Shown piece after piece: positions 3,663 through 63,129 of a DNA stretch of 64,000 nt. Below the pieces are notes generated by a model. That model was not told the DNA's origin, made no database searches, and saw only the letters and a list, made by a program, of their open reading frames with translations. Each line of letters begins with the position of its first letter. The stretch's first letter is position 1. The stretch comes from an uncultured Gammaproteobacteria bacterium (GTDB lineage Bacteria > Patescibacteriota > Patescibacteriia > Magasanikbacterales > GWA2-37-8). The stretch lies in contig CAZWKA010000003.1 of assembly GCA_964634875.1 (NCBI GenBank), forward strand, positions 85,928 to 149,927. The letters are read 5' to 3'. A program made the translations under genes and the position numbers.

Positions 3663-3696
3663 CAGGGCAGTGCTCTAACCATTGAACTACCGACCC
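3621..3696 (-). tRNA. tRNA-Asp (anticodon GTC), CCA encoded
   Basis: The reverse complement folds as a cloverleaf. Acceptor GGGTCGG/CCGACCC, anticodon stem CTGCC/GGCAG with loop CTGTCAC, T-loop TTCGAGT, discriminator G plus CCA. Confidence 0.85.
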
Positions 3697-5128: not shown

Positions 5129-5226
5129 AAAAGTTTAAAGTGTAAAGCAAAAAGTATAAAATAGTTGTGTCGCCTTGGCGACCCGGTCATTTTTAGCTTT
5201 TAGCTTTTAATTTTTCGTTTGTTCAG

Positions 5227-20997: not shown

Positions 20998-21165
20998 TCT
21001 TTACAATATCACACTATTCTACACTGCTTCTGAAAGAAGACAGGACATCTTTCTCTTGAATCTACTATAGATTGAAGAAAGAAACGCCCTGTCTTCGGAC
21101 AGCAAGCACCAACTTGATCCCCACGCCGGGGATTGCTACGGATCACTGAGACAAAGGAGCCGCCC
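20998..21165 (+). promoter_or_regulatory. Structured leader 1: TCTTTACAA box, then a long imperfect hairpin plus an ATCCCC/GGGGAT hairpin, then an SD
   Basis: AAGACAGGACAT...CCCTGTCTT hairpin. CTGTC-TTCG-GACAG tetraloop. CCCCACGCCGGGG hairpin. AGGAG SD 7 nt before the ATG. Confidence 0.5.
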
Positions 21166-21612: not shown

Positions 21613-21793
21613 CTACGGCTGCCGTTGGTATAGGATAGTGTGAAGGTCGCCCGCGCATATTGGCGCGGGGGATCGAGCGACCGGGAGTCATACGTAGAGG
21701 TTGGCGATATAATCGCCGACCGCTCGAGACTCCTGGTCGACCTCGCTTTTTCTTCAGCATTACGATGATGCAGAAAAAGTGAGTGAAGTTGCT

Positions 21794-21924
21794 CTTTACA
21801 AACGCAAGACAGGACATTTTTAACTTCAATATCGTTGAAGTAAGAAACGCCCTGTCTTGCGAAAAACAGATTGGTCCCCACGCAGGGACTGTAACGGCTC
21901 ACTGACAGAATGAAGGAGTCCATC
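21794..21924 (+). promoter_or_regulatory. Structured leader 2, paralogous to leader 1
   Basis: Same TCTTTACAA box. AAGACAGGACAT...CCCTGTCTT stems with a different but still complementary inner hairpin. GTCCC/GGGAC hairpin. CACTGA and AAGGAG elements conserved. Confidence 0.5.
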
Positions 21925-22578
21925 ATGAAGGCCATCCGCACGCTCTCCCTCATCGCCGCCGCTCTCGTCCTCACCGCTGGCATCGCCCGCGCGGACGATG
22001 CGGGCATGAAGACCACGGTCATCAAGTGCACGAAGGCGGAGATCGCCGCCGGGACCTGCACGATCGACGTGACCCTGCCCACCCCGGCGCCCCCCGTCGT
22101 CGTGGCTCCCTCCGAGCCGCCCCCCCCGCCCCCCCCCCCCCCCCCCGGCGGGGGCCCCCCCCCGCCCCTCGGCGCCCCCCCCCCCCCCGCGCACCACCCC
22201 CCCCCGAGCCGCCCCCGCCGCCCCTCGCCCCGCCCCCGGTCGTCGTCACCCCCGAGCCGATCGTCGCCCCGCCCCGCCTCGCGAACAGCCCCGCCCTGCA
22301 GAAGGCCTTCACCCAGACGGCTGAGGAGCACAAGGGCCTCAGCCGCCAGGCCAAGCTCGGGATCGGCTTCGGTGTCGGCGGCGCGGTCCTCGCTGGTGTC
22401 GCGGTCGGCCTCATCGTGTGGCACGTCACCAACGACGGCCTCTACCAGATCAAGCCGCCGATCACCGTGGCGCCCAACGCCCTGACGAACCTCGGCAGCG
22501 GCCCCCTCCGGCTCTCCGGCGCGTCCGTCACCCCGATCCCCGGCGGTGCGGTTCTCTCCGCGGCTCTCGTCTTCTAGA
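21925..22578 (+). CDS. Signal-peptide, proline-rich, C-terminally membrane-anchored protein. The reading frame shifts within the poly-C tracts (frameshifted or phase-variable).
   Basis: Frame 1 (from 21925) encodes a signal peptide, a domain, then poly-Pro. A different frame (22026 track) carries poly-Pro, PPVVVTPEPIV, a TM helix (LGIGFGVGGAVLAGVAVGLIVW), and ends at 22578. The two frames are joined only through the C12-C17 homopolymers. Confidence 0.5.
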
Positions 22579-22694
22579 CCCCCTTCCTCACATGAGGAGC
22601 AGCTCCCGGTTCCTACCGGTCGAAGCTCGCTCCTCGCCCTTTCAACAACGATGAAACTTTCGTGGTTGTTGAAAGGGTTGAAAGACCCACAAGT

Positions 22695-22805
22695 TCTTTA
22701 CAACAGGTTCGGGAAATTTTAACTGCCTAAGTACTATAGGCAAGTGGAATGTCCCGAACCGACAATGTCCCAGCCTAAGAACTGGGCCAAAACCTGGAGA
22801 AGTGC
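22695..22805 (+). promoter_or_regulatory. Structured leader 3 (TCTTTACAA box plus GTTCGGGA...TCCCGAAC hairpin plus CCCAG/CTGGG hairpin)
   Basis: Shares the box and two-hairpin architecture with leaders 1 and 2. Contains AATGTCCC twice. Confidence 0.45.
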
Positions 22806-23795
22806 ATGAACACGATGACTCGCGGTTTGCTTGTCCTTTGTCTCGCCCTCGCCGCCGCGTGCGGCCCCGACCGCACCCTCTGCGCCCCGGGCGCCGAGGC
22901 GATCCTCGCCGTCGGCAACAACACCACCGATTCCCACGGCTTCCTCTGCGGCTGCGACAGCACCTCCGAGTGCGTCGCGGGCCAGCGGTGCGGGTGGTCC
23001 TCCGACTACAAGCGCAACGTCTGCTCCGACAACCTGCTCCAGTCCCTGCCCCCCGGGAGCAATCCCTGCAGCCTGAACAATGGCGGCTGCCGGTCGGACG
23101 AGACCTGCGTCTACAACACCGCCCTGAACTCGGTGTCCTGCACGCCGCCGCCCAAGCCCCAGTGCAACATCACCTGCGGCGCGGGCCAGAAGGCGGCCAC
23201 GAACGCCAACGGGGGCTGCTTCTGCGCCCCGACCTGCGAGGGCGTGGTGTGCGGCGCGGGCCAGACCTGCCAGCTCAACTTCGACCGCGGCCTGTGCGTG
23301 AGCAACTGCCGCGCCCCCTACGTCGAGTGCGGCGGATCCTGTGTCCTGACCCAGCTCAACAACAGCCACTGCGGCGGCTGCGGGAACATCTGCGGCCCCG
23401 GCTCGACCTGCCAGGGCGGCACCTGCCAGCAGATCCCGGCCCCCCAGGATGTGACCTGCCATGGGATGCGGTTCACGCTGGCCCAGGGCACGAACACGAA
23501 CACCACGGCGCGCGAGTGCCGCGGCTACGACATCCGCGGCGACCAGGCCTGGTCCATCGCCCCGCCGACCCCCGGCACCGAGACCAGCGCTCCCAACGGC
23601 ATCTGCGCCGCGACCTGCCTCTCGCAGGCCGGCACCGAGACGGTCGTCCCGGCCAACGGCAGCGCGATCTGGATCCCCGGTGGCAACCAGGACGTCCCGC
23701 GCTACACGCGCCCCGGCTGCCCGCGCCTCCGCTGGCACCCGGTCGGCGACCCCTTCGGCGCCGGCTTCGCGTGGGACGCCTTCTGCGAGCAGTAG
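22806..23795 (+). CDS. Cysteine-rich secreted lipoprotein with EGF-like and CxxGQxC repeats
   Basis: Signal peptide plus lipobox LAAAC. Repeated C-x-x-G-(A/Q)-G-Q-x-C units and a CSLNNGGCRSDETC EGF-like module. GC3-rich. The antisense 334 aa ORF is judged spurious. Confidence 0.65.
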   Translation: MNTMTRGLLVLCLALAAACGPDRTLCAPGAEAILAVGNNTTDSHGFLCGCDSTSECVAGQRCGWSSDYKRNVCSDNLLQSLPPGSNPCSLNNGGCRSDETCVYNTALNSVSCTPPPKPQCNITCGAGQKAATNANGGCFCAPTCEGVVCGAGQTCQLNFDRGLCVSNCRAPYVECGGSCVLTQLNNSHCGGCGNICGPGSTCQGGTCQQIPAPQDVTCHGMRFTLAQGTNTNTTARECRGYDIRGDQAWSIAPPTPGTETSAPNGICAATCLSQAGTETVVPANGSAIWIPGGNQDVPRYTRPGCPRLRWHPVGDPFGAGFAWDAFCEQ

Positions 23796-23833
23796 GCTCG
23801 ACCTAGCTCTCGGCTTCTAGCCGATTGAGCAAG

Positions 23834-23863
23834 GGGCGGGCACACTTCACCGTGTGCCCGCCC
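23834..23863 (+). terminator. GC-rich hairpin (12 bp perfect stem) ending the island
   Basis: GGGCGGGCACAC-ttcacc-GTGTGCCCGCCC. No T-tract follows. Confidence 0.45.
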
Positions 23864-24052
23864 GACCCCTTATCCTGATCATGAACAAAACGTTCGTGGC
23901 AAGAATAAGAGGAAAGAAAATAAAAAAATAATCTTTCAACAATTACTTCTGACGCAGAAATAGTTGTTGGCAGATTACGTACTTCGGTACTAATCCACCA
24001 ACCCAAAAATTCCGCCTATCTCTCTGGGTGGATTTTTGTTTATGGACCAGTA

Positions 24053-49608: not shown

Positions 49609-51435
49609 ATGAAAATCCGTAACGTCGCGATTATTGCTCACGTTGACCATGGTAAAACAACGCTGGTTGACGCTCTTCTTCGCCAATCTAAAACTAAACT
49701 TGATAAGGAATACGCCGAAGTGACCACCATCATGGATAACAACGATCTTGAAAAGGAGCGTGGTATCACGATTTTCTCAAAAAACGCTTCAGTTGTTTGG
49801 GGTGATCCGACCAAGCCGGAAGATTTAACCAAAATTAATATTATTGATACTCCGGGTCACGCTGACTTTGGTGGTGAAGTGGAGCGGGTGCTTAAAATGG
49901 CCGACGGTTGTTTGCTTTTGGTTGATGCCAAAGAAGGCCCGATGCCGCAGACTCGTTTCGTGCTTAAAAAAGCTTTACAACTTGGTCACCGAGTGATTGT
50001 TGTCGTAAATAAGATCGATAAACCTGATGCTCGTATTCAATACGTGCTCGACAAGACTTTGGAATTATTCTTGGAGCTGGGAGCAAATGATGATGTTGCT
50101 GAATTCCCGGTTGTTTTTGCTTCGGCTAAAAATGGTAAGGCTGGCTTTGAGCCTGACCTTGCTACTATGACTGATATTTCTCCGATTTTTGAAAGTATTT
50201 TGAAAAATGTTCCGACACCGACCGGTGACCCAAGCGCACCACTGCAGCTGCTTGCAGTTTCAACCGTGCCAGATAACTATAAAGGACGTATTGCAATTGG
50301 CCGTGTGTATAATGGCACCATTAAGGCAAACCAAGATGTCATGCATATTGCTCGGGACGGAGCCCTGAAGAAATATCGCTTGACCGCGCTTATGACGTTT
50401 GAAGGTATGAACCGGGTGGAGGCCAAAGAGGCTGTAGCCGGCGACATCGTGGCTGTAGCGGGTATACCAGAAATTACGATCGGTGAAACGCTGGCCCAGG
50501 TAGATAATCCGATTGCCCTTCCAACACTCACGATTGACGAACCAACGGTGAAAATGACGTTTGAAGTTAATGATTCTCCGTTTGCCGGTAAGGAAGGGGA
50601 ATATAGTACCTCACGCCAAATTCGCGAGCGCCTCTTTAAAGAAATGGAAAATGATGTTGCTCTCAAAGTGGAAGATGGCCCAGAAGGTAACTGGATCGTG
50701 TCGGGTCGTGGTGAACTGCACCTTGCTATTTTGATTGAACGCATGCGCCGTGAAGGTTTTGAATTCCAGGTTTCTCGTCCGCAAGTGATTCTTAAAGAAA
50801 TTGATGGTAAAAAAATGTGTCCGTACGACCAGGTATATATGGAAATTCCAGAAGCCTATTCGGGTGTTGTGATGCAGAAGATGGGCGAGCGCAACGGTCG
50901 TATGAACGATATGCGCAGTGAGAATGGTATTATTTTTTATGAATTTATCATTCCGACCCGTGGCCTCTTTGGTTACCGTACAGAATATTTAACCGATACG
51001 AAGGGTATGGGTATTATGAATACAGTATTCTACGGTTATGACGAAGATCCGGGTAACTGGAAAGAGCGTAATCAAGGTTCCTTGGTTGCCCACGAAACTG
51101 GCGAAAGTAACCTATACGGTTTGCTTGGTGTTCAGGATCGCGGTGAATTGTTTATTGGGCCGAACGTAGAAGTGTACGAAGGTCAAGTGGTCGGGCAGAA
51201 TAATCGCGGCGGTGACCTCCGTATCAATGTCTGTAAGATGAAGCAATTATCGAACATGCGCTCGAAAGGGGATGGTAGCGCCGAACACTTCAACACTCCT
51301 CATACGATGGACTTGGAAGAGTCGCTTGAATATATTGGTGACGATGAGCTGGTTGAAATTACCCCGAAGAATATCCGTATCCGCAAGATGATTTTGAACG
51401 AGAATGAGGCTCGCCGGAAAGCCAAGAGTGCATAG
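49609..51435 (+). CDS. typA: Translational GTPase TypA/BipA
   Basis: [18 protein letters not shown] GTPase motifs. 608 aa. Confidence 0.9.
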
Positions 51436-51446
51436 TAAATAAAAAA

Positions 51447-51474
51447 ACCACCCCTTCGAAGGGGTGGTTTTTTG
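51447..51474. terminator. Intrinsic terminator
   Basis: ACCACCCC-TTCGAA-GGGGTGGT followed by TTTTTTG. Confidence 0.8.
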
Positions 51475-51526
51475 TTGTCCGTTTTTCAAAAAAAAGCTAT
51501 ACTAAGGTACTCTCTTAATCCATGCT

Positions 51527-52543
51527 ATGAAAACAAAGATAACCATTTTGGGGGCAGGTAATATGGGGACGGCGCTTGCTCGCGTGCTGGGGGATAGCGG
51601 ACATGCTGTAACCATGTGGAATTACGCAGGGGATCCTGACCCGCTTAACCAGATAGCGGCTTATCATGAGAATAAAAAATATTTGCCCGGAATTACCTTG
51701 TCAAAGAATATTTGTGCTGAACATGATTTGGCCGATGCGCTTCGTGGCGCGCGATTAGTTATTTTGGCAGTGCCGAGCAGTATTGTGGAGCGACAGTTAG
51801 AAGCCGCGACCCCTTTCTTGCCTGCCTCTGCCGTTCTTGTAGATGTAAGCAAGGGTTTTACTGGTGTTTTTGATAAAGAAAAAACGGTGTTGAGTACTGC
51901 TGCCCAAAAATGGTGGAATAAGCGGATTATTATTTCTGGACCTGCAGTTGCGGCGGATATTGCCAAGGGAGGCTTCACAACTATGTCGATAGCCGGTAAA
52001 AATAAAAAAGATATTATTTTTGCGCAGCAGGTGTTGACGAGCAGTCATCTGCATTTTTTGTCGACAACTGATGTGCTTGGCATTAAATTGGCAGGCTCGC
52101 TCAAAAATGTGTATGCCATCCTTCTGGGGATGGCAGATGGGCTGAATCTTACTTTGAATACAAAAGCATTCCTTGTGGTGCGCGCCCTGGAAGAAATGTC
52201 GCTCCTCATAAAAAAATGTGGCGGGAAAGCAGAAACACCTCACGCGCTTGCTGGACTTGGCGATTTGGTTGCTACCGGATTATCACCCGTTAGCCGTAAC
52301 CGCCGTTTTGGTGAATATTTAGGCCAAGGATTGGATCGGGTTAGCGCAGAAAAAGCAGTGGGTCAAGTAGTTGAAGGTGTGCCAGCAAGTGAAGGTGCTA
52401 TGAAGCTGGCGCACAAGCATAACATACGGCTGCCGCTTGTTGAATTGGTGTACACAGCTGCTTGGAAAGGGCGCAGTCCGGTAAGGTTGTTTGAGAAAAT
52501 TTTGTCCAAAGACTATGTTCAAAAAAAAGGCCGTAGCCGATAA
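51527..52543 (+). CDS. gpsA: Glycerol-3-phosphate dehydrogenase [NAD(P)+]
   Basis: ILGAGNMGTALA Rossmann motif. GpsA length. Confidence 0.85.
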   Translation: MKTKITILGAGNMGTALARVLGDSGHAVTMWNYAGDPDPLNQIAAYHENKKYLPGITLSKNICAEHDLADALRGARLVILAVPSSIVERQLEAATPFLPASAVLVDVSKGFTGVFDKEKTVLSTAAQKWWNKRIIISGPAVAADIAKGGFTTMSIAGKNKKDIIFAQQVLTSSHLHFLSTTDVLGIKLAGSLKNVYAILLGMADGLNLTLNTKAFLVVRALEEMSLLIKKCGGKAETPHALAGLGDLVATGLSPVSRNRRFGEYLGQGLDRVSAEKAVGQVVEGVPASEGAMKLAHKHNIRLPLVELVYTAAWKGRSPVRLFEKILSKDYVQKKGRSR

Positions 52544-54242
52544 CCACTTGCGGGTTATCTCGATCGTGTTTTTGGTCATTGCCCTCTGGGTACTGGGTCG
52601 GCTTTTTTTTCTGCAGGTTTTGCAGCATGATTATTACAGCTTGTTCGCCCTTAATACGCATGAAATTTATGAAACCCTCCATCCGCAGCGTGGCACTATT
52701 TATGTTCAAGATGCCGCTGGTGAGGAGTACCCGGTGGCGGTGAACAAACAATTTTACCAGGTGTATGCCGTGCCAAAAGAATTTGAGAAAGGCACTGCCT
52801 CAACGACAGCTGCTCAACTAATCGAGATCTTGGGCATAACCGACCAAACAAAAAAAGACCGTTTATTTAACCGTCTTAGTAAAGAAGATGATCTGTACGA
52901 AGCAGTTGAGCGAAAAGTGCCCGAAGAATTGGCTGATAAAGCAACGGCGCTTAAAGGTGTACATAGTACGCCGGAACAATACCGTTTTTATCCCGAGCAA
53001 AATTTGGGTGCGGCAGTTTTTGGTTTCTGTGGTTTGAATGATGATGGTAATAGTGTTGGGCGTTATGGCCTGGAAGCGTATTGGGATGATAAATTGGCTG
53101 GCACACCAGGTTTCCGAATGGGAGAACGCGGCGCCTTTGGCAGTTGGATCACGACGGCGGGTATGACGCTTAACCCTTCGCACAATGGCGCTGATTTGCT
53201 CCTGACGATTGATCGGACATTACAATATACTGCCTGCAAGAGGCTTCAGGAGGGCTTGGTCGAGTTTGGTGCCCAGCGGGCAGCACTCGTTATGATGGAT
53301 CCGAAGACCGGTGCAGTATTGGCGATGTGTAGTTTGCCGGATTTTGATCCGAATAATTTTTCAAAAACACCGGACATTGACGCTTTCAATAATCAGGCGA
53401 TTTTTACTCCGTATGAACCTGGTTCGGTTTTTAAGCCGATTACGATGGCGCTGGCGATCGATGCTGGCTTGGTGCGCCCGGAAACGACTTTTACTGATCC
53501 GTGCGAGCGAAAAATTGACCGTTTTACCATTCGCAACGCTCTGCGCAAATGTTATGGTCTTCAGACAATGACCCAGGTATTGGAAAATTCGATTAATACT
53601 GGCATGATTTGGATTCAAGAAAAACTTGGGCGTGCTGCATTCCAGGCTGGGGTTGCTAAATTTGGTTTTGGACAAAAAACAGGTATTACGCTCAGCACTG
53701 AAATTGCCGGGGATATTTCGTCACTCGATAAAAAAAATTCGCCTATTTACGGTGCGGTTGGTTCGTTTGGTCAGGGGCTCACAGCGACTCCTATCCAGTT
53801 GGCAACAGCCTATTCAGCGCTGGTTAACAATGGTAAGCTTCCCAAACCCTATATTGTTGAGGAAATCCGTTATCCTGATGGGAGCACTGAAAAAACCAAG
53901 CCTTATATTATCGATACGGTTATTTCAGACAGGGCATCGCAGCTAATCCGCGGCATGCTGGTTTCGGTTGTAGAGAATGGTTCAAGTTACATAAAGACAA
54001 AATTACCTGATTACTATGTGGGTGGTAAAACTGGTACGGCTCAGATCCCTGGCAAGGGTGGGTATACAGACGAAACAAACCACACCTTTGTCGGGTTTGG
54101 GGCAGCAAACGACCCGCGTTTTGTACTTGTGGTAAAATATGAAAAACCAGCCCGGCAATGGGCAGAATCTACCGCTGCTCCAGTATTTAAAGATATTATG
54201 CAGTTTGCCCTGCAGTACTATGGTATTGCGCCCGAGCGCTAG
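52515..54242 (+). CDS. Class B penicillin-binding protein (PBP2/FtsI-type transpeptidase)
   Basis: N-terminal TM helix. SVFK (SxxK), SNT-like and KTGTA motifs. Confidence 0.8.
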   Translation: MFKKKAVADNHLRVISIVFLVIALWVLGRLFFLQVLQHDYYSLFALNTHEIYETLHPQRGTIYVQDAAGEEYPVAVNKQFYQVYAVPKEFEKGTASTTAAQLIEILGITDQTKKDRLFNRLSKEDDLYEAVERKVPEELADKATALKGVHSTPEQYRFYPEQNLGAAVFGFCGLNDDGNSVGRYGLEAYWDDKLAGTPGFRMGERGAFGSWITTAGMTLNPSHNGADLLLTIDRTLQYTACKRLQEGLVEFGAQRAALVMMDPKTGAVLAMCSLPDFDPNNFSKTPDIDAFNNQAIFTPYEPGSVFKPITMALAIDAGLVRPETTFTDPCERKIDRFTIRNALRKCYGLQTMTQVLENSINTGMIWIQEKLGRAAFQAGVAKFGFGQKTGITLSTEIAGDISSLDKKNSPIYGAVGSFGQGLTATPIQLATAYSALVNNGKLPKPYIVEEIRYPDGSTEKTKPYIIDTVISDRASQLIRGMLVSVVENGSSYIKTKLPDYYVGGKTGTAQIPGKGGYTDETNHTFVGFGAANDPRFVLVVKYEKPARQWAESTAAPVFKDIMQFALQYYGIAPER

Positions 54243-54301
54243 GGGGAGAAAAGCGAAAAGGTAAAAATAATATTTTGAGTTTTTAGTTTTACGTTTGTAT
54301 T

Positions 54302-55588
54302 ATGTCAAAAACTTTCTTGCAAAAAATTCTCGCGACGCTTTCTAAAAAAATTCTCGCTAAGTATAAGCCGAAAGTGGTTGGTATAACTGGTTCGGTTGGT
54401 AAGACCACTGCCAAAGAAATGACTGCGGCGGTTTTGGCCGGACGTTTCCGTGTTGGCGCAACGAGTAAAAACAACAACAATGAAATTGGCGTACCGCTTG
54501 CAATCATTGGTGTTTACAATGCCCCCGGCTCATCATTTTTTGCTTGGGCGGGCGCTCTCCTGAAGGGGTTGGGTTTGCTTGTGTTTACCAGTAAAAACTA
54601 TCCCGAGGTGCTTGTTTTAGAAATGGGCGCAGATAAACCGGGTGATATCCGGTATCTGGTTGATTTGGCGCCATGCACCGTGGGTGTTTTGACGTGGATT
54701 TCACATGCGCATACGGAGTTTTTTAAGACCCTCAAACAAATTGCGGAAGAGAAGAAAAAAATTGTTTCACATCTCGATAAGACGGGCTGGGCAGTCTTAA
54801 ATTTTGACAACGAATTAGTTCGTGAGACGGCCTCGGCAACCAAAGCGACTGTTATTTCTTATGGGTTTAAGGACGGTGCTGACCTGCGCGCGACTGACCT
54901 TAGGATTTTGTATGACCAGAGTACGAATTGGCCAAGCGGTATTAATTGTAAAATTAATTTTAAGGGCCACAGTGTGCCTTTGTTTTTTCCAGGAGTCATT
55001 GCTGAGCACATTATTTGTTCGAGCTTGGCTGCCCTTGCGGTTGGGGATGTATTTGGTATTAATTTAGTTGAAGCAGCAGCTGCTCTGACCTCGGCTGAGC
55101 CGCCCAAGGGCAGGATGCGGCTTTTGAAAGGCGTAAAAGATACCTTGCTTATTGATGATACCTACAACTCAAGCCCCGATGCTACCAAGTCGGCGCTTAA
55201 GACCTTGGCTGGGTTACAAAAATCTGCTGGAAAGCGCTATGCCGTTTTGGGAGATATGCTTGAGCTTGGCGCAGAGACTGAAGCGGCTCACCGCGAAATT
55301 GGTTTTGCCGTAGCTGAAGGTGATATTGATTATTTAATTACGGTGGGTGAAGCCAGTAAAGCGACGTGCCGAGCCGCGGAAGAAGCCGGGTTATCAAGCG
55401 ATCAGATAGCGGCCTTTGCAGATAGTGTTTCGGCGGGCAGATTTTTGCAAGAGAAAATAAAAGAAGGGGACATGGTTTTGGTTAAAGGTTCGCAGGGTAT
55501 TCGGATGGAACGGGTAGTTAAAGAAGTGATGCAAGATCCGCTTGAGGCTGAACGCTTGTTGGTTAGGCAGAGTAGGGAATGGAAGTAG
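54302..55588 (+). CDS. Mur ligase, MurF-like (short N-terminus)
   Basis: GITGSVGKTT P-loop at residue 28. IDDTYNSSPDATKSAL (MurF IDDSYNANP-like). Confidence 0.65.
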   Translation: MSKTFLQKILATLSKKILAKYKPKVVGITGSVGKTTAKEMTAAVLAGRFRVGATSKNNNNEIGVPLAIIGVYNAPGSSFFAWAGALLKGLGLLVFTSKNYPEVLVLEMGADKPGDIRYLVDLAPCTVGVLTWISHAHTEFFKTLKQIAEEKKKIVSHLDKTGWAVLNFDNELVRETASATKATVISYGFKDGADLRATDLRILYDQSTNWPSGINCKINFKGHSVPLFFPGVIAEHIICSSLAALAVGDVFGINLVEAAAALTSAEPPKGRMRLLKGVKDTLLIDDTYNSSPDATKSALKTLAGLQKSAGKRYAVLGDMLELGAETEAAHREIGFAVAEGDIDYLITVGEASKATCRAAEEAGLSSDQIAAFADSVSAGRFLQEKIKEGDMVLVKGSQGIRMERVVKEVMQDPLEAERLLVRQSREWK

Positions 55589-55659
55589 TTTTGGGTTGAC
55601 GATCTTGATAGATTATGGTATTTTCCTTCTGCTTAAGCGCTTGCCTTGGCAAGCAATTT

Positions 55660-55731
55660 GGCCCGTTCGTCTATCAGTTAGGACAGTGCCCTCTCACGGC
55701 GCAAAGACGGGTGCGATTCCCGTACGGGCTA
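55660..55731 (+). tRNA. tRNA-like element (possible non-canonical tRNA-Glu, anticodon CTC, no CCA) or tRNA-derived fragment
   Basis: Folds into a 72 nt cloverleaf. 7 bp acceptor GGCCCGT/ACGGGCT. Anticodon stem GTGCC/GGCGC with loop CTCTCAC. T-arm ACGGG-TGCGATT-CCCGT. The D-arm is weak and position 55 is G. Confidence 0.3.
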
Positions 55732-55761
55732 CAAAACAGTGCGCACAGAGGTTCCGAGAGA

Positions 55762-55792
55762 CCGGGACGGCCTTATAGCCGTCCCGGTTTTG
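55762..55792 (+). terminator. Intrinsic terminator
   Basis: CCGGGACGGC-cttata-GCCGTCCCGG followed by TTTTG. Confidence 0.7.
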
Positions 55793-56041
55793 TAATTGCT
55801 TCAATTACTTAATTAAAGGCATGCTAGGTTTGTTATAAAATTTAAGCTCACGCAATACAAAAGAATCCTGGTGGTCGTCTTATATTTGTTGGCTCTTTTG
55901 CTATTTATAGTTTTATCGGTGGTAATCTCAATAGTTTAGTTTGGAGCAGTAATTCTGACTCAAGTATTTGGTTTTATTCAGGAGCGTTCATGGTTATTTT
56001 GGGCGGTTCCAGGCTCTGTTCGAAAAATATGGAATCAAGAG

Positions 56042-56413
56042 TTGTTATTGTCTGATGCTCGAAAAAATTTGGCACCAGAAGAATTAATAGTTTTTGAAAA
56101 GATATATAACTTCTGTAAGAATAATGGTGCAGAGATAAACTTTGGTACCGGCTCAAATGGATCTTTTAGTCCAATCTTTTCTGTACTTTCTAAAAAATCT
56201 CTTTTTACCCTCTCTACGAGAAATCGTCTTAGGTTTAATTTTAAATGGGTGGCAGCTGATAATCCACGTTTTGCTTATAAGCTTGGTAAGATGTTTTACG
56301 AAGCTGGATTTAAATTTCCTCAGAACTATGAGGAGCTACATCCGAGTTTTTCTGCCCAAGAGTGGTCACATATGGCTGATCGTATTCCAGTGATTATTGG
56401 TAGGTTGTTGTAA
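56042..56413 (+). CDS. Hypothetical protein (123 aa) in the AT-rich island
   Basis: ORF only. Confidence 0.4.
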   Translation: MLLSDARKNLAPEELIVFEKIYNFCKNNGAEINFGTGSNGSFSPIFSVLSKKSLFTLSTRNRLRFNFKWVAADNPRFAYKLGKMFYEAGFKFPQNYEELHPSFSAQEWSHMADRIPVIIGRLL

Positions 56414-56522
56414 CAATACAGAAATTGGCGATTAAAACGAGGCCAGTTGCCTCGTTTTACCTTTACTAAGTCGATAAATAGGCGTAGATTAAAGAAAAAT
56501 TTAAGCTATTCGTAGAATTTAT

Positions 56523-58115
56523 ATGAAGTTGTCGGATAAAGACCGTTTTTTTCTTTTGCAAAGATTATTTTCTCAAAAAGGAGAAACTCCGCTTTTTCTT
56601 GTTCATCATTATGATGAAAATCTTTTAAATGATATTAAAACGCTTAAAAATCGTCTTCGCAAAAAAGGAAATTTTGTCATAGAAACCTACCAGGGTGAAC
56701 TTGAGAAGCGAGTTATCTCGGGAGCATCAGGAGTTGTAAAAGAGATCATAGACTATACGGCTTATGCTGCTACTATTCTATTTGACGTTACAAAAGTAGC
56801 CGGAGAAGTATATGGAATATGGCAAGCAGCTTTTGCCTTTAATAAATTTATCGAAAAAATTTCTTTTGAAAAAGACATGCTCCTGATAAACGAGATTGAA
56901 AGGGAAAATAATTTTCCTTTGCAAGTTTGTTTTATTGTAAACAGCAGAATGTCTGACCATTTTAGATTAAAGGCCCTTAATGATATAGTTGCCACATCCA
57001 ACGCGGTTAAGGATAATATTCTACAGTATAAGAACATAGAAATAATGGTTTTAAATTATAATATTGCTAGTCAAATTTGGGATCTTGAAAACCCTAAATT
57101 TTTTTTACGTAACCATGGAACAGTCGCAATTACGACACAACGTACCGGTAAGATTTTTGGCTTTTTCCTTGCCTCAGATGTTTTTGAAGGTCCTTATAAT
57201 AATTACTGGGAATATATAAATAATACTGATGTTTCAGAAAAGGCCAAGAAGAATGCCTTAATGCTTAGACACTCTTATTATCAGAAGCTTAGAAGTGTGG
57301 GTGATATCCGGTCAGCTTTAAAAACAGTCGGTGCGGCTCAGGTTTGTGTTTATATGTATGATAATTTTTTATCACCTCTTGAAGGAAGAGTTTCTTTGCC
57401 TGCTGAAAACGCAAAATATATTGGCGGTCACGCGGTAAGTGTTATTGGATTTGATGATGAAAAGAAAGAATTTACTTTCAATAATAATTGGGGTGAAAAT
57501 TGGGGAGATAAGGGGCGAGGTTATTTACCTTATGAATATGTTGATAAATACTTGATGGAAGCGTGGGCCAATTCGCCATTATTTAACATAAAATGGCGTT
57601 TAAAACGATTGGCTAATCCTCTTAGATGGCCTTTTCAGGTTAAAAGATTTATAAAGGCTCTAAAGGAGAAAAGTTTAGAAAAAGTGGTTAGAAAAGGGCG
57701 GTTTATAGACAAAAGGCGAGTTTCGGTAAAATATGAAGTAAAGGTTGTTCGGTCTCTAAATCAAAAGGGATATTTTTATGTAATTAACCTCTTTAATACT
57801 AAAGAATCATTGGCTTATGGTGCGTGGTGTCACTTCAATTTAGACCCCAGAAATAACTATGTTGAAATTGAAGAGCTTTTTGTGTCTGAAGACTTTAAAG
57901 GTTTTGGTTGGGGTAAGTTTATGATCAATCTTGTTGAGGAATATGCTCGTAGAGAAAAAATAGAAAAAGTCTATGGATGGGTTTACATATATGATGCATT
58001 TAATGAACTTTTAGCAAATTTTCTAAAAAGATTTTATGAAAAAAAGGGTTATCAATGCATAAATGACACGGGTGCGCATGTTGGCTCCTTATTTCGTTTT
58101 GAAAAGTTTCTATAA
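56523..58115 (+). CDS. Fusion protein with a papain-like (C1-type) peptidase His region and a C-terminal GNAT acetyltransferase domain
   Basis: GGHAVSVIGFDD...NNNWGENWGDKGRGYLPYEY (C1 His plus NSWG box). FKGFGWGKFM GNAT motif A. Confidence 0.5.
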   Translation: MKLSDKDRFFLLQRLFSQKGETPLFLVHHYDENLLNDIKTLKNRLRKKGNFVIETYQGELEKRVISGASGVVKEIIDYTAYAATILFDVTKVAGEVYGIWQAAFAFNKFIEKISFEKDMLLINEIERENNFPLQVCFIVNSRMSDHFRLKALNDIVATSNAVKDNILQYKNIEIMVLNYNIASQIWDLENPKFFLRNHGTVAITTQRTGKIFGFFLASDVFEGPYNNYWEYINNTDVSEKAKKNALMLRHSYYQKLRSVGDIRSALKTVGAAQVCVYMYDNFLSPLEGRVSLPAENAKYIGGHAVSVIGFDDEKKEFTFNNNWGENWGDKGRGYLPYEYVDKYLMEAWANSPLFNIKWRLKRLANPLRWPFQVKRFIKALKEKSLEKVVRKGRFIDKRRVSVKYEVKVVRSLNQKGYFYVINLFNTKESLAYGAWCHFNLDPRNNYVEIEELFVSEDFKGFGWGKFMINLVEEYARREKIEKVYGWVYIYDAFNELLANFLKRFYEKKGYQCINDTGAHVGSLFRFEKFL

Positions 58116-58118
58116 AGT

Positions 58119-58844
58119 ATGTCAAAATACACTGATACAAGTAAAAAATTTGTTGACAATCTAATTAGGGATGTTCTTCCGATCATGCGTCAGGAAATGA
58201 AAGGATGGGTAAAAGGAAAGGATCTAAAAATTAGATATTCCGATAGAGAACAATTTTTAATTTCTCTAGCAAGATATGTGTCAAAAATTGATGGGTGCCT
58301 ACAAAGACAGCAAGTCTTTCCAAAATTAATTCAATCATACTCGGCTAGCTATGAAAAATTAGGATTTTCCAGGGTTGCACAACTTATTTATCATATAGAG
58401 AATTATCTATCGGAAGTTTATATTTTTCACGAAAGAACCATTGCTTTTTTAAAATACTTAAAAAAGGAGTGTAAAAAAATAGGCGAACAAGATTTAATGA
58501 TTCTCATTGAGGATGTCACAGGTGCATTCGTTGAAACATTAGAACCCATCATTAGGACGAGGGGTGTGCATACTCATGTGGAGCGTTTTTCAGACGAACA
58601 GTTATCTGATCTCGAGACAATTGATTTAGGGTTTCAGTTGGAAATGAAGAAAAATAAAAAATCTAAACAAATACACTATTTTAAAATGGCGAGAAAAATA
58701 AAACTTCTTGCTGTTAGAAGAAAGTGGAAGAGTACTTTTAAAAAAAATTATGAAGTTTTTAAGGAATTGCTAGATCAAATTTATTACATTCTAGATAAAA
58801 AACGTATTATTAAAGTAATCATAGATAAAAAGTGTAATAGTTAA
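58119..58844 (+). CDS. Hypothetical protein (241 aa), start 4 nt after the previous stop
   Basis: Translationally coupled to the fusion gene. Confidence 0.45.
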   Translation: MSKYTDTSKKFVDNLIRDVLPIMRQEMKGWVKGKDLKIRYSDREQFLISLARYVSKIDGCLQRQQVFPKLIQSYSASYEKLGFSRVAQLIYHIENYLSEVYIFHERTIAFLKYLKKECKKIGEQDLMILIEDVTGAFVETLEPIIRTRGVHTHVERFSDEQLSDLETIDLGFQLEMKKNKKSKQIHYFKMARKIKLLAVRRKWKSTFKKNYEVFKELLDQIYYILDKKRIIKVIIDKKCNS

Positions 58845-59013
58845 GATCGGTTTTTTATACTGTCCATCGTGTCCGTCGAAAAGATCTTCTCTTTTGTTCT
58901 AGTTTTGATAAAATAAACCCGACCGAGACGGCTAATTCAGAAAGGGGAGGGGGTCCCTAAAAACCCCTCAACGGTCTGCCCCCTGTGGGTGTGAGACCGG
59001 AACGTCCTACTTA

Positions 59014-59046
59014 ATAAAAAAACAGAGATCACTCTCTGTTTTTTTG
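59014..59046. terminator. Bidirectional intrinsic terminator
   Basis: AATAAAAAA-ACAGAGA-tcac-TCTCTGT-TTTTTTT. Confidence 0.75.
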
Positions 59047-59063
59047 TCACGCAGTAAGGAATA

Positions 59064-59122
59064 AACCCCTGACCTGCCAGCGTATCCAGACCTGGATACG
59101 CTGGCAGGAAAAGGCAGGGGTT
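59064..59122. other. Nested perfect hairpin (16-17 bp inner stem inside an 8 bp outer stem)
   Basis: AACCCCTG-ac-CCTGCCAGCGTATCCAG-acc-TGGATACGCTGGCAGG-aaaagg-CAGGGGTT. Confidence 0.5.
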
Positions 59123-59147
59123 GGTAACGCATCTATCGGAGCGAAGC

Positions 59148-59660
59148 TCATTTGGTCATGAGCGTCAATCGCCCCTCGTTGCCCGAGCGAGCAAAAGCTT
59201 TCTCAAGTAGGTGCATCATGCTGAGACCGACGGTCCACCCGGGGCCGCTTTTCGTCTCAGTCAACAGGACTTCTCGAAAGGGAAAATGGTTGAATCCGTT
59301 GTTGTGCATGACTACATTGAAACGGTCGCAGTAGGGCTGTCCTACTTCAAACCGTTCCGTTGCTTCAAGCCAGACTGCCCGCCCAGTGTTGCTGGCCTGG
59401 CAGATCGCTTCCGACAGGGGGCGGTAGACTTCGCGGACCTTTTTTGCTAGCTCTTGGCCGCTCAGCTCCATGAAAATCAAGCCTATCGGATCGCCGTCCC
59501 TTTGGGCGTCGCCCAGCGCAACTGCAAGTGGGCGCTGGAAGTAACTCTCTTGCATATCGAGGGCGAAAAGCCCGGCTTGCAACTCATCTTGGGACAGGCT
59601 GCCGTTACCAAGTCGGGTAATCATTTTCCACGCATCAACAAACAAAATTCTCACCGCCAT
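59148..59660 (-). CDS. Hypothetical protein (170 aa)
   Basis: ORF with the terminator/hairpin downstream. Somewhat GC-enriched. Confidence 0.45.
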   Translation of the reverse strand: MAVRILFVDAWKMITRLGNGSLSQDELQAGLFALDMQESYFQRPLAVALGDAQRDGDPIGLIFMELSGQELAKKVREVYRPLSEAICQASNTGRAVWLEATERFEVGQPYCDRFNVVMHNNGFNHFPFREVLLTETKSGPGWTVGLSMMHLLEKAFARSGNEGRLTLMTK

Positions 59661-59939
59661 GGACGACCTCCTGGTTGCTTTTTATTTGCAGCATACCCTA
59701 CCATAAAAAACGCTTCGTGTCTAGGTGTAAGGCCTGGCATTATTTTAAGCTATCTGTTATATTTTCAACGTAAATTAACCTTTTATCCATCACATGAAAC
59801 CAGGATTCGATTATAATGTGAAGGTTGGGGCTGGTATGATTTTGATAAATTGCGTGCACTGTTATTTGGTTGTGAGTCGAATTATCTGATAGCATGAAGA
59901 CGGTAGAGTCTGCTTTAGTGTTTAAGGAATTAATCGTGT

Positions 59940-60680
59940 ATGTCAGAATACCGGGGGCCGGAAAGGCCGAGGACAACCACAAAAAATTATGAAAAAGATG
60001 ATAGCGGCTCTGTTCCGCTTCCTTTTGATATTTCAGTTTCACGGGAAGAATATGATCGGATTACTACGTCTGGCCCTGAGGCGGACTTTAAAGCAATGAT
60101 TGGTGAACGTAGTGTGCTGGCTTTTGATGAGTTTAAAAAATTAGTGAAGGATGCAGGTTTGGTGCATTTTAAAGCGGGTACGTACCATACGCCTGATAAG
60201 CAGTTGTGGTTGTATGCTAAAAAAGGTTTTTATTCCCGCACGATCGAGCAAGCTCAGGCGGATAAAATCACCGCCGAAGCTTTGACTGAGCGTGGAGTCG
60301 TTTTTCCAGGAACCAAGTGGGGAATATATCAGACAGAAAATGGTAATTACCATTTGTTTGCTTACACTCGTGGCCTGAAGCATTCATCGTCAGATGCGGC
60401 TGCTTTTGATGTAAGTATTTTGATGGAAGATTTATCTGTTCGGGTGGGCATCAAGGATCCGGATACGGGAGAATTTTTGAAGGATGCTCGCTATATCAGC
60501 AATTTTAATTATCGGGAAGCAAATCATTCCCAAAACTGGGGTTTTTCACCAGAGTTGGGTCAGTACTTTCCGGTTGATGTAGAAGTTATTGAGTTTGAGA
60601 CTGCAGATAATCGCGAGGCGCGTAGAAGTGAAGAGTTGGCTGTGTTAAGCCGCTTGGCCGGGCAAGACCAGAACATTTAG
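59940..60680 (+). CDS. Hypothetical protein (246 aa)
   Basis: ORF followed by a CCTTGC...GCAAGG plus T-tract terminator. Confidence 0.5.
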   Translation: MSEYRGPERPRTTTKNYEKDDSGSVPLPFDISVSREEYDRITTSGPEADFKAMIGERSVLAFDEFKKLVKDAGLVHFKAGTYHTPDKQLWLYAKKGFYSRTIEQAQADKITAEALTERGVVFPGTKWGIYQTENGNYHLFAYTRGLKHSSSDAAAFDVSILMEDLSVRVGIKDPDTGEFLKDARYISNFNYREANHSQNWGFSPELGQYFPVDVEVIEFETADNREARRSEELAVLSRLAGQDQNI

Positions 60681-60737
60681 TTTTAAAAAACAGAAGCACA
60701 CCCTTGCCTTTAGCAAGGTTTTTTGTTTTTATGAATA

Positions 60738-61883
60738 TTGCTGTCCTTAAACCCCTGTGCTATAGTCCAAATCATGAAACTCATCGAATCGCCTGTTTCC
60801 TATCAATTTCATACGACCACGCAAGCGGCTTGGGACGCTATGTACCAAACCTTGCTTAAGGCTGAAAAATCGATTTATTGGGAGGTGTATATACTGACTG
60901 ATGATTCAGTTGGAAGGCGGTTTATTGATCTTTTGTGCGCCAAAGCTTTGACTGGTGTTGATGTAAAAATTATTGTTGACGGGCTTGGTAGCGTTGCTCT
61001 ATCTGGGGCAGCCGAAGCGCGACTGAAGGCCTCTGGCGTCTCGGTTGTTTGGTATAACAGTATTAGCTTTAAACCCAACTTATGGTTGTGGGTTCGGAAT
61101 TTATGGATACGTAACCACCGCAAGATTTTAATAGTTGACCAAGGAACCGCCTTTATTGGCGGAGTAAATGTTGATGCTATGTCGACTGCATGGGATGACC
61201 TGCACCTCGAAATGGAGGGGCCGATCGTGCAGTCATTGACCCGTGCGTTCGCTAAAAGTTATATCCGTTCGGGGGGTGACAGGGAGGCGGTCGCGCCGTT
61301 ATTGAAGCGGACTCGCTTGTTCGATCTTGAAAAATTGCGTAATAAAATAAACGTTTTAATGCATACGCCTAAATCGCTCCGGGCTGTGTCGTCGCTCTGG
61401 TATTTTTATCGTTTCGCTATGGAGCGGGCGGAGCGGACCGTAACGATGTTAACGCCTTACTATGTTCCAGATAAGCGTTTTTTGCGTCTGATTAAAGAAA
61501 CAAAAAATCGCGGAGTAACAATTAATATTTTAATTCCCGGCCGAAGCGACCATCGTTTTATGGAGTATATGGCTGAGTCGTTTTATGAGTTGACTGCGCG
61601 TGCCGGGGCAAATTTATTCTTACTAAAGAACATGAATCATGGTAAGGCGTTGAGTGTCGACGGACGTCTGGGGTTTGTGGGGAGCGCGAATATTACGCCG
61701 CGCAGCTTTTTTTTGAATGAAGAGGCGGGGGTCTATTTTACAGATAGGCCAATGGTGGCTGACTTAGATCGAGTGCTTGAGGCTTGGCGAAGCGGAGCAG
61801 AACGGGTTGTTGTCGCGCAGAACCGTAACTGGTATGACCGGTTGCTCCGCCCAGTAGTCGCTTGGTTTAAAAATTATGTCTAA
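60738..61883 (+). CDS. Phospholipase D-family enzyme (cardiolipin-synthase-like, two HKD motifs)
   Basis: HRKILIVD...GGVN and HGKALSVDGRLGFVGSANI. Confidence 0.75.
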   Translation: MLSLNPCAIVQIMKLIESPVSYQFHTTTQAAWDAMYQTLLKAEKSIYWEVYILTDDSVGRRFIDLLCAKALTGVDVKIIVDGLGSVALSGAAEARLKASGVSVVWYNSISFKPNLWLWVRNLWIRNHRKILIVDQGTAFIGGVNVDAMSTAWDDLHLEMEGPIVQSLTRAFAKSYIRSGGDREAVAPLLKRTRLFDLEKLRNKINVLMHTPKSLRAVSSLWYFYRFAMERAERTVTMLTPYYVPDKRFLRLIKETKNRGVTINILIPGRSDHRFMEYMAESFYELTARAGANLFLLKNMNHGKALSVDGRLGFVGSANITPRSFFLNEEAGVYFTDRPMVADLDRVLEAWRSGAERVVVAQNRNWYDRLLRPVVAWFKNYV

Positions 61884-63129
61884 GAAAAAAATTTCCCTTA
61901 CCTATAGCGGTCCGGTTCCGTTGGCTGAACGGATGCGCCCGCGTTCGTTCCTCGAGTTCGTGGGGCAGAAAAAAATTGCCGGACCAAAAACAATTCTTCG
62001 TCGCCTGATTGAGCAGGATGAATTGACGTCGCTTATTTTTTGGGGTCCCCCAGGAGTAGGCAAGACGACCTTGGCCCAGCTGATCGCTGTGGAAAGTAAG
62101 GCCGTATTCGTGAGTGTCTCCGCCGTTTTGAGCGGCAAAGATGAGCTTCGGCGTTGTCTCGACGAAGCGCAGGAGCGACGGGAAAAAAATAATGAACGAA
62201 CAATTTTGTTTGTTGATGAGATTCACCGGTGGAGTAAAGCGCAGCAAGATGCCCTCTTGCCGGCAGTTGAGCGGGGAGTAGTTACGCTGATTGGGGCGAC
62301 GACGGAAAACCCCTCGTTTGAAATTATCGGCGCTTTGTTGTCGCGTTGCCGAGTGATTATTCTTGAAGCGCTTGCCGCCGCGGAAATTGTTGTGATTTTA
62401 AAAGAAGCCCTGGCCGATACGGAGCGAGGTATGGGCGCATTTGCGGTAGTGGTTGAGGATGAAACATTGCTTTTACTGGCAGACCTAGCCAACGGGGATG
62501 CCCGGAGCGCTCTTAATGCCCTGGAAATTGCCGTGAAGAGCGCGGCAAAAATAGCAGGTAAAAAAACTGTCATTACCAAAGAAATTATTAAGGAAGCGCT
62601 GCAACGGACACACTTAATTTTTGATAAGCAGGGGGAAGAATTTTATAACGCTATTTCAGCGCTCCACAAGTCGATGCGCGGATCGGATGCTGATGCGTCG
62701 CTCTATTGGTTGGCGCGGATGCTCGAGGGCGGGGCGGATCCTTTGTATATTGCCCGGCGGGTGCTCCGGTTTGCGAGTGAAGACATTGGCATGGCCAACA
62801 GTGAGGCGATGATCCAGGCGAATGCGGCGTATGATGCCTGTCACAAGATCGGGTACCCCGAATGTAGTGTGCATTTGGCGCAGGCGGTAGTGTATTGTGC
62901 TAAGTCGGCAAAATCTAACGTGCTGTATAGGGCGTACAAAGCAGCAGCTGAAGATGCGCGCAACACTTCTCGTCTTGGCGTTCCGCTTCATTTACGTAAT
63001 GCGCCGACGAAGTTAATGAAAGATATCGGGTACAGCAAGGATTATAAATATAATCCTGATTATGAGGGTCCGGTGGAGCAGGATTATTTTCCGAAGGAAT
63101 TAAAAGGAAGGAAGTATTTAAAAAAATAA
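61876..63129 (+). CDS. rarA: Replication-associated recombination protein A (AAA+ ATPase)
   Basis: LIFWGPPGVGKTTLA Walker A. Walker B DEIHR. MgsA C-terminal helical domain. Confidence 0.85.
   Translation: MSKKKISLTYSGPVPLAERMRPRSFLEFVGQKKIAGPKTILRRLIEQDELTSLIFWGPPGVGKTTLAQLIAVESKAVFVSVSAVLSGKDELRRCLDEAQERREKNNERTILFVDEIHRWSKAQQDALLPAVERGVVTLIGATTENPSFEIIGALLSRCRVIILEALAAAEIVVILKEALADTERGMGAFAVVVEDETLLLLADLANGDARSALNALEIAVKSAAKIAGKKTVITKEIIKEALQRTHLIFDKQGEEFYNAISALHKSMRGSDADASLYWLARMLEGGADPLYIARRVLRFASEDIGMANSEAMIQANAAYDACHKIGYPECSVHLAQAVVYCAKSAKSNVLYRAYKAAAEDARNTSRLGVPLHLRNAPTKLMKDIGYSKDYKYNPDYEGPVEQDYFPKELKGRKYLKK

Follow-up and report, generated by a model that had tools for sequence, protein, structure and literature searches.

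A predicted papain-fold remnant fused to a GNAT acetyltransferase domain in a variable slot beside tRNA-Glu of a Patescibacteria genome

The window analysed here is the whole stretch of 64,000 nucleotides (64 kb) taken from contig CAZWKA010000003.1 of assembly GCA_964634875.1, and all positions are counted within it. Between a tRNA-Glu gene and a gene of the phospholipase D (PLD) family lies a variable slot with an AT-rich block, in which the open reading frame (ORF) orf530 encodes a three-domain protein of 530 residues. A preliminary description of this DNA had presented the protein as an unusual pairing of a papain-like peptidase with a GNAT acetyltransferase, carried by a recently acquired three-gene cassette for defence, toxicity or host modification. 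The slot and orf530 are laid out as follows.

55660 to 55732, plus strand: tRNA-Glu (anticodon CTC), the left anchor of the slot (ARAGORN; Rfam RF00005, 47.6 bits against a gathering score of 29).
55734 to 60737, unstranded: the complete variable region from tRNA-Glu to the PLD gene (blastn against the relative L005; tblastn in 70 related loci).
55790 to 58920, unstranded: AT-rich block, GC 0.333 (change-point scan, z = -6.7, composition profile).
56523 to 58115, plus strand: orf530, 530 amino acids (aa) (ORF list).
56523 to 57101, plus strand: orf530 residues 1-193, N-terminal alpha/beta domain, found only in the "long" family (AlphaFold2 model).
57102 to 57575, plus strand: orf530 residues 194-351, truncated papain-fold (C1) domain (hhalign, Foldseek).
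57675 to 58115, plus strand: orf530 residues 385-530, GNAT acetyltransferase domain (Pfam, Foldseek, motif A).
60738 to 61883, plus strand: PLD-family gene, the conserved right anchor of the slot (Pfam PLDc_2).

The motifs quoted in the preliminary description for the C1 His region and the GNAT domain were all located in the 530-residue protein, which carries GGHAVS at residues 301-306, NNNWGENWG at 320-328 and FKGFGWGKFM at 458-467. Pfam assigns Peptidase_C1 to residues 235-331 (30.7 bits; cut-off 20.7). Of the 220 profile positions only 98-198 are matched, which is the His/Asn half of the profile. Acetyltransf_1 scores 30.6 bits (cut-off 20.7), with GNAT models at residues 435-518, and both PHROGs and NCBIfam concur with the domain assignment. 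The AlphaFold2 model of orf530, built with a 70-sequence alignment, has a mean predicted local distance difference test (pLDDT) score of 89 and a predicted template-modelling score (pTM) of 0.88, and this high pTM suggests that the packing between the domains is fixed. The top Foldseek match in the PDB is xylellain (3ois; E = 8e-11, 171-174 columns, root-mean-square deviation 2.5-2.8, target-normalised template-modelling score 0.5), the roughly 172 matched columns amounting to about half of the papain fold. Further matches, with target-normalised scores of 0.42-0.56, are to the GNATs NatD/Naa40, GCN5, RimI and PaiA and to bacterial protein acetyltransferases. The pLDDT of residues 1-193 is mostly 85-95 within the model of the whole protein and 78 for the domain by itself; against the PDB, Foldseek gives these residues a best E of 0.07 and a template-modelling score no higher than 0.30, Pfam has no match to them, and family profile positions below 187 match nothing among PDB sequences. 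The three-domain anatomy of orf530 is near-certain. A search for transmembrane (TM)-like hydrophobic segments found none in orf530, and four of its relatives have borderline hydropathy at residues ~50-80; the protein is predicted to be cytoplasmic.

The papain-fold domain lacks the segment that bears the Gln and the Cys in canonical C1 enzymes. First, hhalign relates the orf530 family to 23 canonical bacterial C1 peptidases with a probability of 99.9 and E = 2.6e-33, and pairs only residues 194-351 of orf530 with residues 147-299 of the canonical peptidase P0002, whose near-invariant Q101 and C107 sit at least 40 residues upstream of the aligned part. A profile search of the PDB matches residues 127-276 of xylellain, again only the region downstream of the canonical Cys. 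Second, no column upstream of His303 has a majority of Cys in the 70 aligned sequences. orf530 has no equivalent of papain Cys25, the residue that opens the central L-domain helix, nor of the oxyanion-hole Gln (papain Gln19), canonical Q101 lying outside the homologous region. C136, which a first MAFFT alignment had put near the Cys position, was considered as the catalytic Cys and rejected on conservation, the nine full-length members having C, Y, C, C, G, G, C, C, F at this position. Third, the shorter members of the family start directly after the position of the Cys helix, and the relative P0030 begins 13 nt after the preceding gene, still with no Cys motif; the absent Cys helix is therefore not a truncated gene call.

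The remainder of the site is strictly kept. The catalytic His and Asn (papain His159 and Asn175) and the Trp of the NSWG motif correspond to His303, Asn321 and Trp323, found in 70, 69 and 69 of the 70 family members, and G288, G328, G331 and G333 are invariant. We read the C1 region of orf530, on the strength of these alignments, as a papain-fold remnant whose His-Asn-Trp sub-site is under strong selection and which has lost the nucleophile and the oxyanion Gln; since both are absent, the protein would not be a cysteine peptidase by the canonical mechanism. The opposite reading takes orf530 for a working cysteine peptidase of the papain type with a GNAT attached, one that might, for instance, cleave a target and then acetylate it. 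In its favour are the Pfam C1 score above cut-off, the conservation of His303 and Asn321, the fold match to xylellain and the name "C1 family peptidase" that NCBI gives to the two relatives that bear a name. It has to contend with a C1 match confined to the distal half of the profile, an hhalign alignment that begins 40 residues past the canonical Cys, the Y, G or F that replaces C136 in close relatives, and a short family that starts past the Cys helix and leaves no room for a missing exon. Conservation has already largely refuted it. The papain-like peptidase of the preliminary description thus survives as a fold and fails as an enzyme with the Gln19/Cys25 segment and a conserved Cys; that description would have given way had there been neither a catalytic Cys nor a papain fold, and the Cys is absent while the fold match is present.

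The relatives come from an exhaustive HMMER search, followed by an alignment of 70 members. Eight are full-length (P0021-P0028; 28-41% identity, E = 1e-108 to 1e-52) and form with orf530 the long family; the larger short family consists of proteins of 300-395 aa that match the C1 and GNAT parts and are devoid of the first ~190 residues. Peptidase_C1 is detected in 66 and Acetyltransf_1 in 62 of the 70 aligned members, and the two are paired in at least 60 clusters, so a pairing that had been called unusual proves to be recurrent, though unstudied: literature searches found no published account of a C1-GNAT fusion or of a PycTM-acetyltransferase pairing. The family is rare and its distribution sporadic, the long form having so far been seen in Patescibacteria and the short form in unrelated high-GC genomes. 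A word-indexed protein search, with the single sequence or with the family profile, missed the true relatives and returned only orf530 itself and ordinary C1 peptidases covering 8-25%. Scans for long-family loci gave a single metagenome contig, identical to the long-family locus L072, and none in IMG/VR. Two-domain members were likewise absent from IMG/VR, GenBank phages, PLSDB plasmids and BFVD, where only single-domain C1 or GNAT proteins were matched, which provides no evidence of viral origin.

The N-terminal domain of the long family may be a former partner protein that became fused. The hint is a weak hhalign match (E = 0.009, probability 4%, 94 columns) between residues ~100-192 of this domain and a 186-aa ORF at 1052-1612 (minus strand) of locus L138, which is divergent from short-family P0038. 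A 135-aa ORF of locus L139 was tried as an equivalent of the fused domain and proved not to be one. Tested for being PycTM-, TM- or EACC1-like, the domain has no Pfam match; one distant family member has a sub-threshold C-terminal EACC1 match.

The GNAT domain of orf530, judging by its conserved residues, looks catalytically competent. Motif A reads K459-G-F-G462-W-G464. Of the 70 family members, 65 have R (56), Q (8) or K (1) at position 459, 58 have Gly at 462, and 62 have either G or A at 464. On the acidic EIEELF strand, E450 is kept in 58 of the 70 members and E or D at 451 in 69, and D491 is conserved. The features of the GNAT superfamily seen in it are a Pfam score above the gathering score, the GNAT fold by Foldseek and motif A (Q/R-x-x-G-x-G/A). 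In NCBIfam, the best score is 20 bits where the cut-off is 154, and no equivalog model is matched.

The DNA that carries orf530 stands out from the remainder of the window. The 1-kb bins from 56001 to 59000 have GC contents of 0.348, 0.343 and 0.332 against ~0.46 elsewhere in the window, and the change-point scan delimits a block whose GC of 0.333 compares with 0.477 in the 1.5-kb flanks. The lowest-GC stretch of 3 kb lies at z = -6.7 standard deviations relative to the background of the 64-kb window. GC at third codon positions (GC3) is 0.26-0.28 in orf123, orf530 and orf241, and 0.44-0.49 in the flanking PBP, MurF and PLD genes. The low GC of about 33% over three co-directional genes, as first described, is borne out by these figures and all three ORFs are present; similarly, ARAGORN and Rfam both identify the "tRNA-like element" upstream of them as a true tRNA-Glu(CTC).

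Comparison with relatives fixes the boundaries of the slot. MurF, encoded just upstream, has relatives in ~45 metagenome-assembled genomes (MAGs) of Patescibacteria or Candidatus Magasanikbacteria at 47-84% identity, from which we take the source of the window to be a Magasanikbacteria-like member of Patescibacteria; the closest relative is L005, whose MurF is 84% identical. The tRNA-Glu is 100% identical in L002 and L005. In blastn, the window aligns with L005 only at 50002-55733 and 60738-62732: nucleotide homology ends at 55733, one base past the 3' end of the tRNA (55732), and resumes at the start of the PLD gene at 60738. The variable DNA accordingly reaches 60737, further right than the preliminary description had placed its limit. 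The PLD gene is 75.6% identical to its L005 counterpart and, by tblastn, lies downstream of MurF in seven of the 70 related loci (L005, L003, L012, L013, L020, L040 and L044). None of the five ORFs between 55734 and 60737 has a tblastn match in any of the 70, and these 5.0 kb between tRNA-Glu and the PLD gene are private to the genome of the window.

The same slot holds other cargo elsewhere. In L005 the identical tRNA is followed by a different block of ~35% GC, with genes for MTase_III (E = 3.7e-197), REase_III (1.4e-132) and the candidate defence protein PDC-S18 (5.8e-97). Between this AT-rich restriction-modification (R-M) block and the PLD gene, a cytochrome-P450-like ORF of 62-64% GC occupies 17863-19209 (minus strand) of L005. 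The L005 slot is likewise a compositional mosaic, as is the variable region of the window, which joins the AT-rich block to the GC-rich orf170c and to orf246 of ordinary GC. More distant relatives have MTAP and APRT (L003) or unrelated genes (L012) at this place. The MAG contigs of L002, L031, L019 and L030 stop at tRNA-Glu or a few hundred bases beyond, which is consistent with population- or strain-level variability of the slot breaking assemblies.

From composition and synteny, we take the 3.1-kb AT-rich block to have been acquired by horizontal transfer. The view that the segment is recently acquired and compositionally foreign stands: it is absent from all 70 related loci, the slot of the sister genome has a different cassette, and the proposed synteny check showed no conservation of the segment at similar GC in relatives. 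The suggestion that the tRNA served as an integration landmark found no such backing. No integrase ORF or mobility gene lies between 55734 and 60737, the 23 nt of the tRNA 3' end have no second copy in the window, even at up to 3 mismatches, and the intergenic DNA has no Rfam element beyond the tRNA.

Around orf530, the slot is filled with orphan ORFs and hairpins.

55761 to 55788, plus strand: terminator-like G+C-rich hairpin ACCGGGACGGCC..GGCCGTCCCGGT followed by a T run, just 3' of the tRNA (palindrome search).
56042 to 56413, plus strand: orf123, soluble orphan of 123 aa, TTG start, GC3 0.28 (ORF list).
56433 to 56459, plus strand: terminator-like hairpin TAAAACGAGGCC-AGT-TGCCTCGTTTTA between orf123 and orf530 (palindrome search).
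58119 to 58844, plus strand: orf241, soluble, helical, Lys-rich orphan of 241 aa (ORF list, sequence).
59007 to 59108, unstranded: two hairpins between the convergent orf241 and orf170c, one A/T-flanked at 59007-59054 and one with a perfect 17-bp stem at 59073-59108 (inverted repeats).
59148 to 59660, minus strand: orf170c, orphan, GC 0.548, GC3 0.64 (ORF list, composition).
59940 to 60680, plus strand: orf246, orphan of ordinary GC (ORF list, composition).

A terminator scan places a site at 55777-55789, within the hairpin region next to the tRNA, and the AT-rich DNA begins directly beyond this hairpin. The second terminator-like hairpin suggests that orf123 is a separate transcription unit. 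This ORF has no match in Pfam, PADLOC, NCBIfam or PHROGs and none by tblastn in related loci, and its best PDB sequence match has E = 0.14. The ATG of orf241 begins 4 nt past the orf530 stop, a spacing from which the two are probably co-transcribed. A word-indexed search of 5.8 billion protein clusters found only orf241 itself; Pfam, NCBIfam and PHROGs have no family match to it, and PADLOC gives only E = 0.084 to PDC-M01B. Neither orf123 nor orf241 has a counterpart beside any homologue of orf530, so the functional unit is the single gene orf530 and not the three-gene cassette originally proposed. Both are probably lineage-specific passengers. The paired hairpins at the convergent end look like bidirectional terminators. 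Beyond them, orf170c deviates in GC in the direction opposite to the AT-rich block, and neither it nor orf246 has a family match or a relative in the 70 related loci.

Elsewhere in the window, a high-GC island at 21000-24000 (0.60-0.70 against a background of 0.46) encodes a Cys-rich, probably secreted protein of 329 aa (22806-23795) and a Pro-rich one of 191 aa (21910-22485), and is either an assembly chimera or foreign DNA of high-GC origin. Directly upstream of this island lies a 1199-aa ORF (17076-20675, plus strand) in which PDARDTAPHTPVF-type peptide repeats occur in tandem around residues 190-270. A transfer-messenger RNA with a long predicted tag peptide, ANLFSKAKSALANAFSTFAPAMA, is located at 5224-5619 (minus strand), and tRNA-Asp at 3621-3696.

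Long-family genes are AT-rich throughout (27-34% GC) whatever the GC of their flanks, which fits a horizontally circulating gene. In three long-family loci the gene immediately upstream is divergent and encodes LexA_DNA_bind and Peptidase_S24 domains fused to a DNA methyltransferase. The elements compared in these loci, and the membrane-protein genes found beside short-family members, are the following.

L073 1210-2916, L074 3-1289 and L077 3078-4925, minus strand: LexA-S24-methyltransferase genes (domain search).
L074 1290-1398, L077 4926-5067 and L073 2917-3025, unstranded: shared intergenic regions (palindrome and motif comparison).
L082 5467-5988 and L137 529-1005: PycTM-like genes with three TM segments (3-TM) (PADLOC).

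The linked C1-GNAT proteins (P0022 in L073, P0023 in L074 and P0028 in L077-79) are 28-36% identical to orf530, and the methyltransferase class differs from locus to locus (D12, N6_N4 and N6_Mtase/Eco57I). In the searchable literature we found no description of LexA-S24-methyltransferase fusions. L073 also has an EcoRV-like endonuclease and a C-protein-type helix-turn-helix (HTH), L074 a GmrSD/HEC-05-like gene, and L077-79 an HTH, an ORF of 347-349 aa and a large serine recombinase. The motif AAGTT(A/G)TCCACAG (upstream motif AAGTTATCCACAG) is common to the three loci, 5-35 nt before the C1-GNAT start. Just upstream of this start, all three intergenic regions have TTATCCACAG, an exact match to the DnaA-box consensus. 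In L074 and L077, an inverse CTGTGGATA(A/T) is found at the methyltransferase end, ~90 nt away, together with a 45-nt similar stretch and tandem CCC(T/G)AAAA repeats. The intergenic CTGTGGATAA/TTATCCACAG sites may constitute a shared operator of the LexA-like domain. The divergent pairing and the conserved upstream motif suggest damage-responsive control in these three loci.

The short family keeps different company. In L082 and L137 a 3-TM protein encoded 3-13 nt upstream has a full-length match to PADLOC PycTM models (E = 1.9e-6 and 9.9e-5); a precomputed PF18967 match of the PycTM-like protein was not reproduced by a Pfam scan. A conserved Pro/Lys-rich ORF of 44 aa lies just downstream in L082, L083 and L084. 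The PycTM-like and short C1-remnant/GNAT genes may form a two- or three-gene system distinct from Pycsar, no cyclase being present. L139 adjoins an MmeI-like methyltransferase/endonuclease, an SNF2 helicase and DUF4238, and no recognised defence gene was seen in L080 or L138.

The reading that we prefer is of a defence-associated acetyltransferase with a pseudo-peptidase domain for recognition; its function is deduced from context, and as a whole it has an even chance of being right. Its parts differ in strength. A defence association of the family, which rests on its neighbours, is slightly favoured over the contrary, and a recognition role for the pseudo-peptidase domain is a tentative, rather doubtful proposal. 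In this scheme, orf530 would be a non-protease, acetyl-CoA-dependent acetyltransferase, whose pseudo-peptidase domain would recognise a peptide or protein ligand as substrate or trigger. It would act as a stand-alone conflict or defence gene, possibly as a second line of defence linked to R-M. In some lineages, control would be exerted by a self-cleaving LexA-like repressor attached to the R-M methyltransferase, and in others, those of the shorter relatives, output would pass through a PycTM-like membrane protein. More speculatively, the GNAT-bound acetyl-CoA might supply the thioester on which the His-Asn dyad works, now that the Cys25 thioester is lost. In its most ambitious form, which we consider somewhat unlikely, the C1-remnant/GNAT family would be a new, unnamed anti-phage or conflict class that either senses a phage peptide or protein or forms a composite acyl-transfer site with the acetyl-CoA thioester, with a different output partner from branch to branch: the fused N-terminal domain (as in orf530), a PycTM-like membrane effector or a LexA-S24-methyltransferase R-M module that derepresses the C1-remnant/GNAT gene on DNA damage.

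Several observations weigh against the defence-associated acetyltransferase. The sample of neighbourhoods is small, 12 loci counted with no enrichment statistic, and three of the seven long-family loci (L072, L075 and L076) have no recognisable defence neighbours. The copy in the window itself has no R-M, LexA-methyltransferase or PycTM partner, and the upstream motif agrees there at 9 of 13 positions, which is not significant. The structural neighbours of the GNAT domain are, as modelled, generic. The search of defence databases advised in the preliminary description, run here against PADLOC-DB 2.0, yielded no model matched by orf530 or by either of its two neighbours; a defence role finds support in the relatives of orf530 that lie in defence neighbourhoods.

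Of the alternatives, a non-conflict enzyme survives best. It would be a peptide, antibiotic or metabolite N-acetyltransferase, of resistance or housekeeping function, riding in variable DNA where all kinds of cargo accumulate and where defence neighbours are coincidental. The lack of a defence model for orf530, the long-family loci with no defence neighbours and the metabolic genes MTAP and APRT in the same slot of other relatives all agree with it. It does not readily account for the repeated tight pairing with LexA-S24-methyltransferase genes of three classes across proteins only ~30% identical, for PycTM-like genes 3-13 nt upstream of short members, or for the sporadic distribution of a rare family, and we consider it unlikely.

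An addiction or toxin module is a less probable choice, and in our judgement an improbable one. GNAT toxins are an established class, and a toxin that acetylates, for example, aminoacyl-tRNA in the manner of TacT and AtaT could serve to maintain mobile DNA or R-M cassettes, its antitoxin being orf241 (or orf123). The 4-nt spacing between orf530 and orf241 would suit such a module, as would a gene that travels with mobile AT-rich DNA and once with a serine recombinase. Yet no partner is conserved beside any homologue, and orf241 and orf123 have neither relatives nor a ribbon-helix-helix (RHH), DUF1778 or other antitoxin-type domain. Toxins of the TacT/AtaT type are single-domain proteins of ~170 aa with a conserved upstream RHH/DUF1778 antitoxin; orf530 is three times the size of a GNAT toxin and has two extra conserved domains.

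A further possibility, and a very improbable one, is an episymbiosis effector, delivered to or acting on the bacterial host of the patescibacterium and acetylating host proteins. Patescibacteria are largely episymbionts, according to a preprint (10.1101/2024.03.08.584096), and the long family has so far been seen in this group. Against an effector speak the lack of a TM-like hydrophobic segment in orf530 (with no dedicated signal-peptide predictor used), the lack of secretion genes nearby and the occurrence of the short family in unrelated high-GC genomes. The active cysteine peptidase, given the conservation described above, is the least probable reading of all.

Patescibacteria genomes have so far yielded few identified defence systems (PMC12366544), and the tRNA-Glu/PLD slot carries defence genes in the closest relative. 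At the very least, an annotation needs correcting: a recurrent family goes under the name "C1 family peptidase" although a papain-type protease function is impossible for it. Should the family prove to be a defence or toxin enzyme, the pseudo-protease joined to a GNAT would be a new sensor/effector architecture, and the conserved link to LexA-S24-methyltransferase R-M genes, if true, would mean that R-M systems are connected to a further effector. A well-defined biochemical puzzle is posed, in addition, by a His-Asn site that is strictly conserved with no nucleophile.

Comparison with known systems situates the locus at several levels. The variable segment resembles tRNA-adjacent genomic and defence islands in its place next to a tRNA 3' end, its deviant composition, its absence from relatives and the R-M cassette that stands in for it in the sister genome; it differs from tRNA-adjacent integrative islands in lacking an integrase, mobility genes and a direct repeat of the tRNA end, and it holds a GC-rich ORF. 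Short-family relatives share with Pycsar (PycC cyclase with a PycTM or PycTIR effector) a PycTM-like 3-TM protein encoded upstream. No cyclase accompanies it, however, and the window has neither a cyclase nor a TM protein, so the likeness is a lead on the family and not a classification of the locus. With the GNAT toxins of type II toxin-antitoxin systems (TacT, AtaT, ItaT and KacT), orf530 has in common a GNAT catalytic domain on mobile DNA and a possible growth-arrest role, but its 530 residues, three domains and lack of a conserved partner place it outside that class. Its GNAT domain is close to the N-acetyltransferases NatD/Naa40, RimI, GCN5 and PaiA in fold, in the motif A pyrophosphate loop (R/Q/K-x-x-G-x-G/A), in the acidic beta-4 strand EIEELF and in a C-terminal FYEKKGY-type motif, and differs from them in its permanent fusion to a pseudo-peptidase domain and in having no equivalog model. 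With xylellain-type C1A peptidases (3ois), the orf530 family shares a homologous R-domain and distal L-domain and the GxH, NSWG and WGDxGxGYxPY motifs. It differs in lacking the N-terminal third of the mature domain, with the Gln and the Cys on the central helix, and in conserving no substitute nucleophile; in place of the missing third, the long family has an unrelated domain of 190 aa and the short one has nothing, and the papain domain is always followed by a GNAT. Despite this relation to family C1, the alignments indicate that the orf530 family is not to be filed as a C1 peptidase, and the locus is defence-island cargo assembled from known folds in an undescribed architecture.

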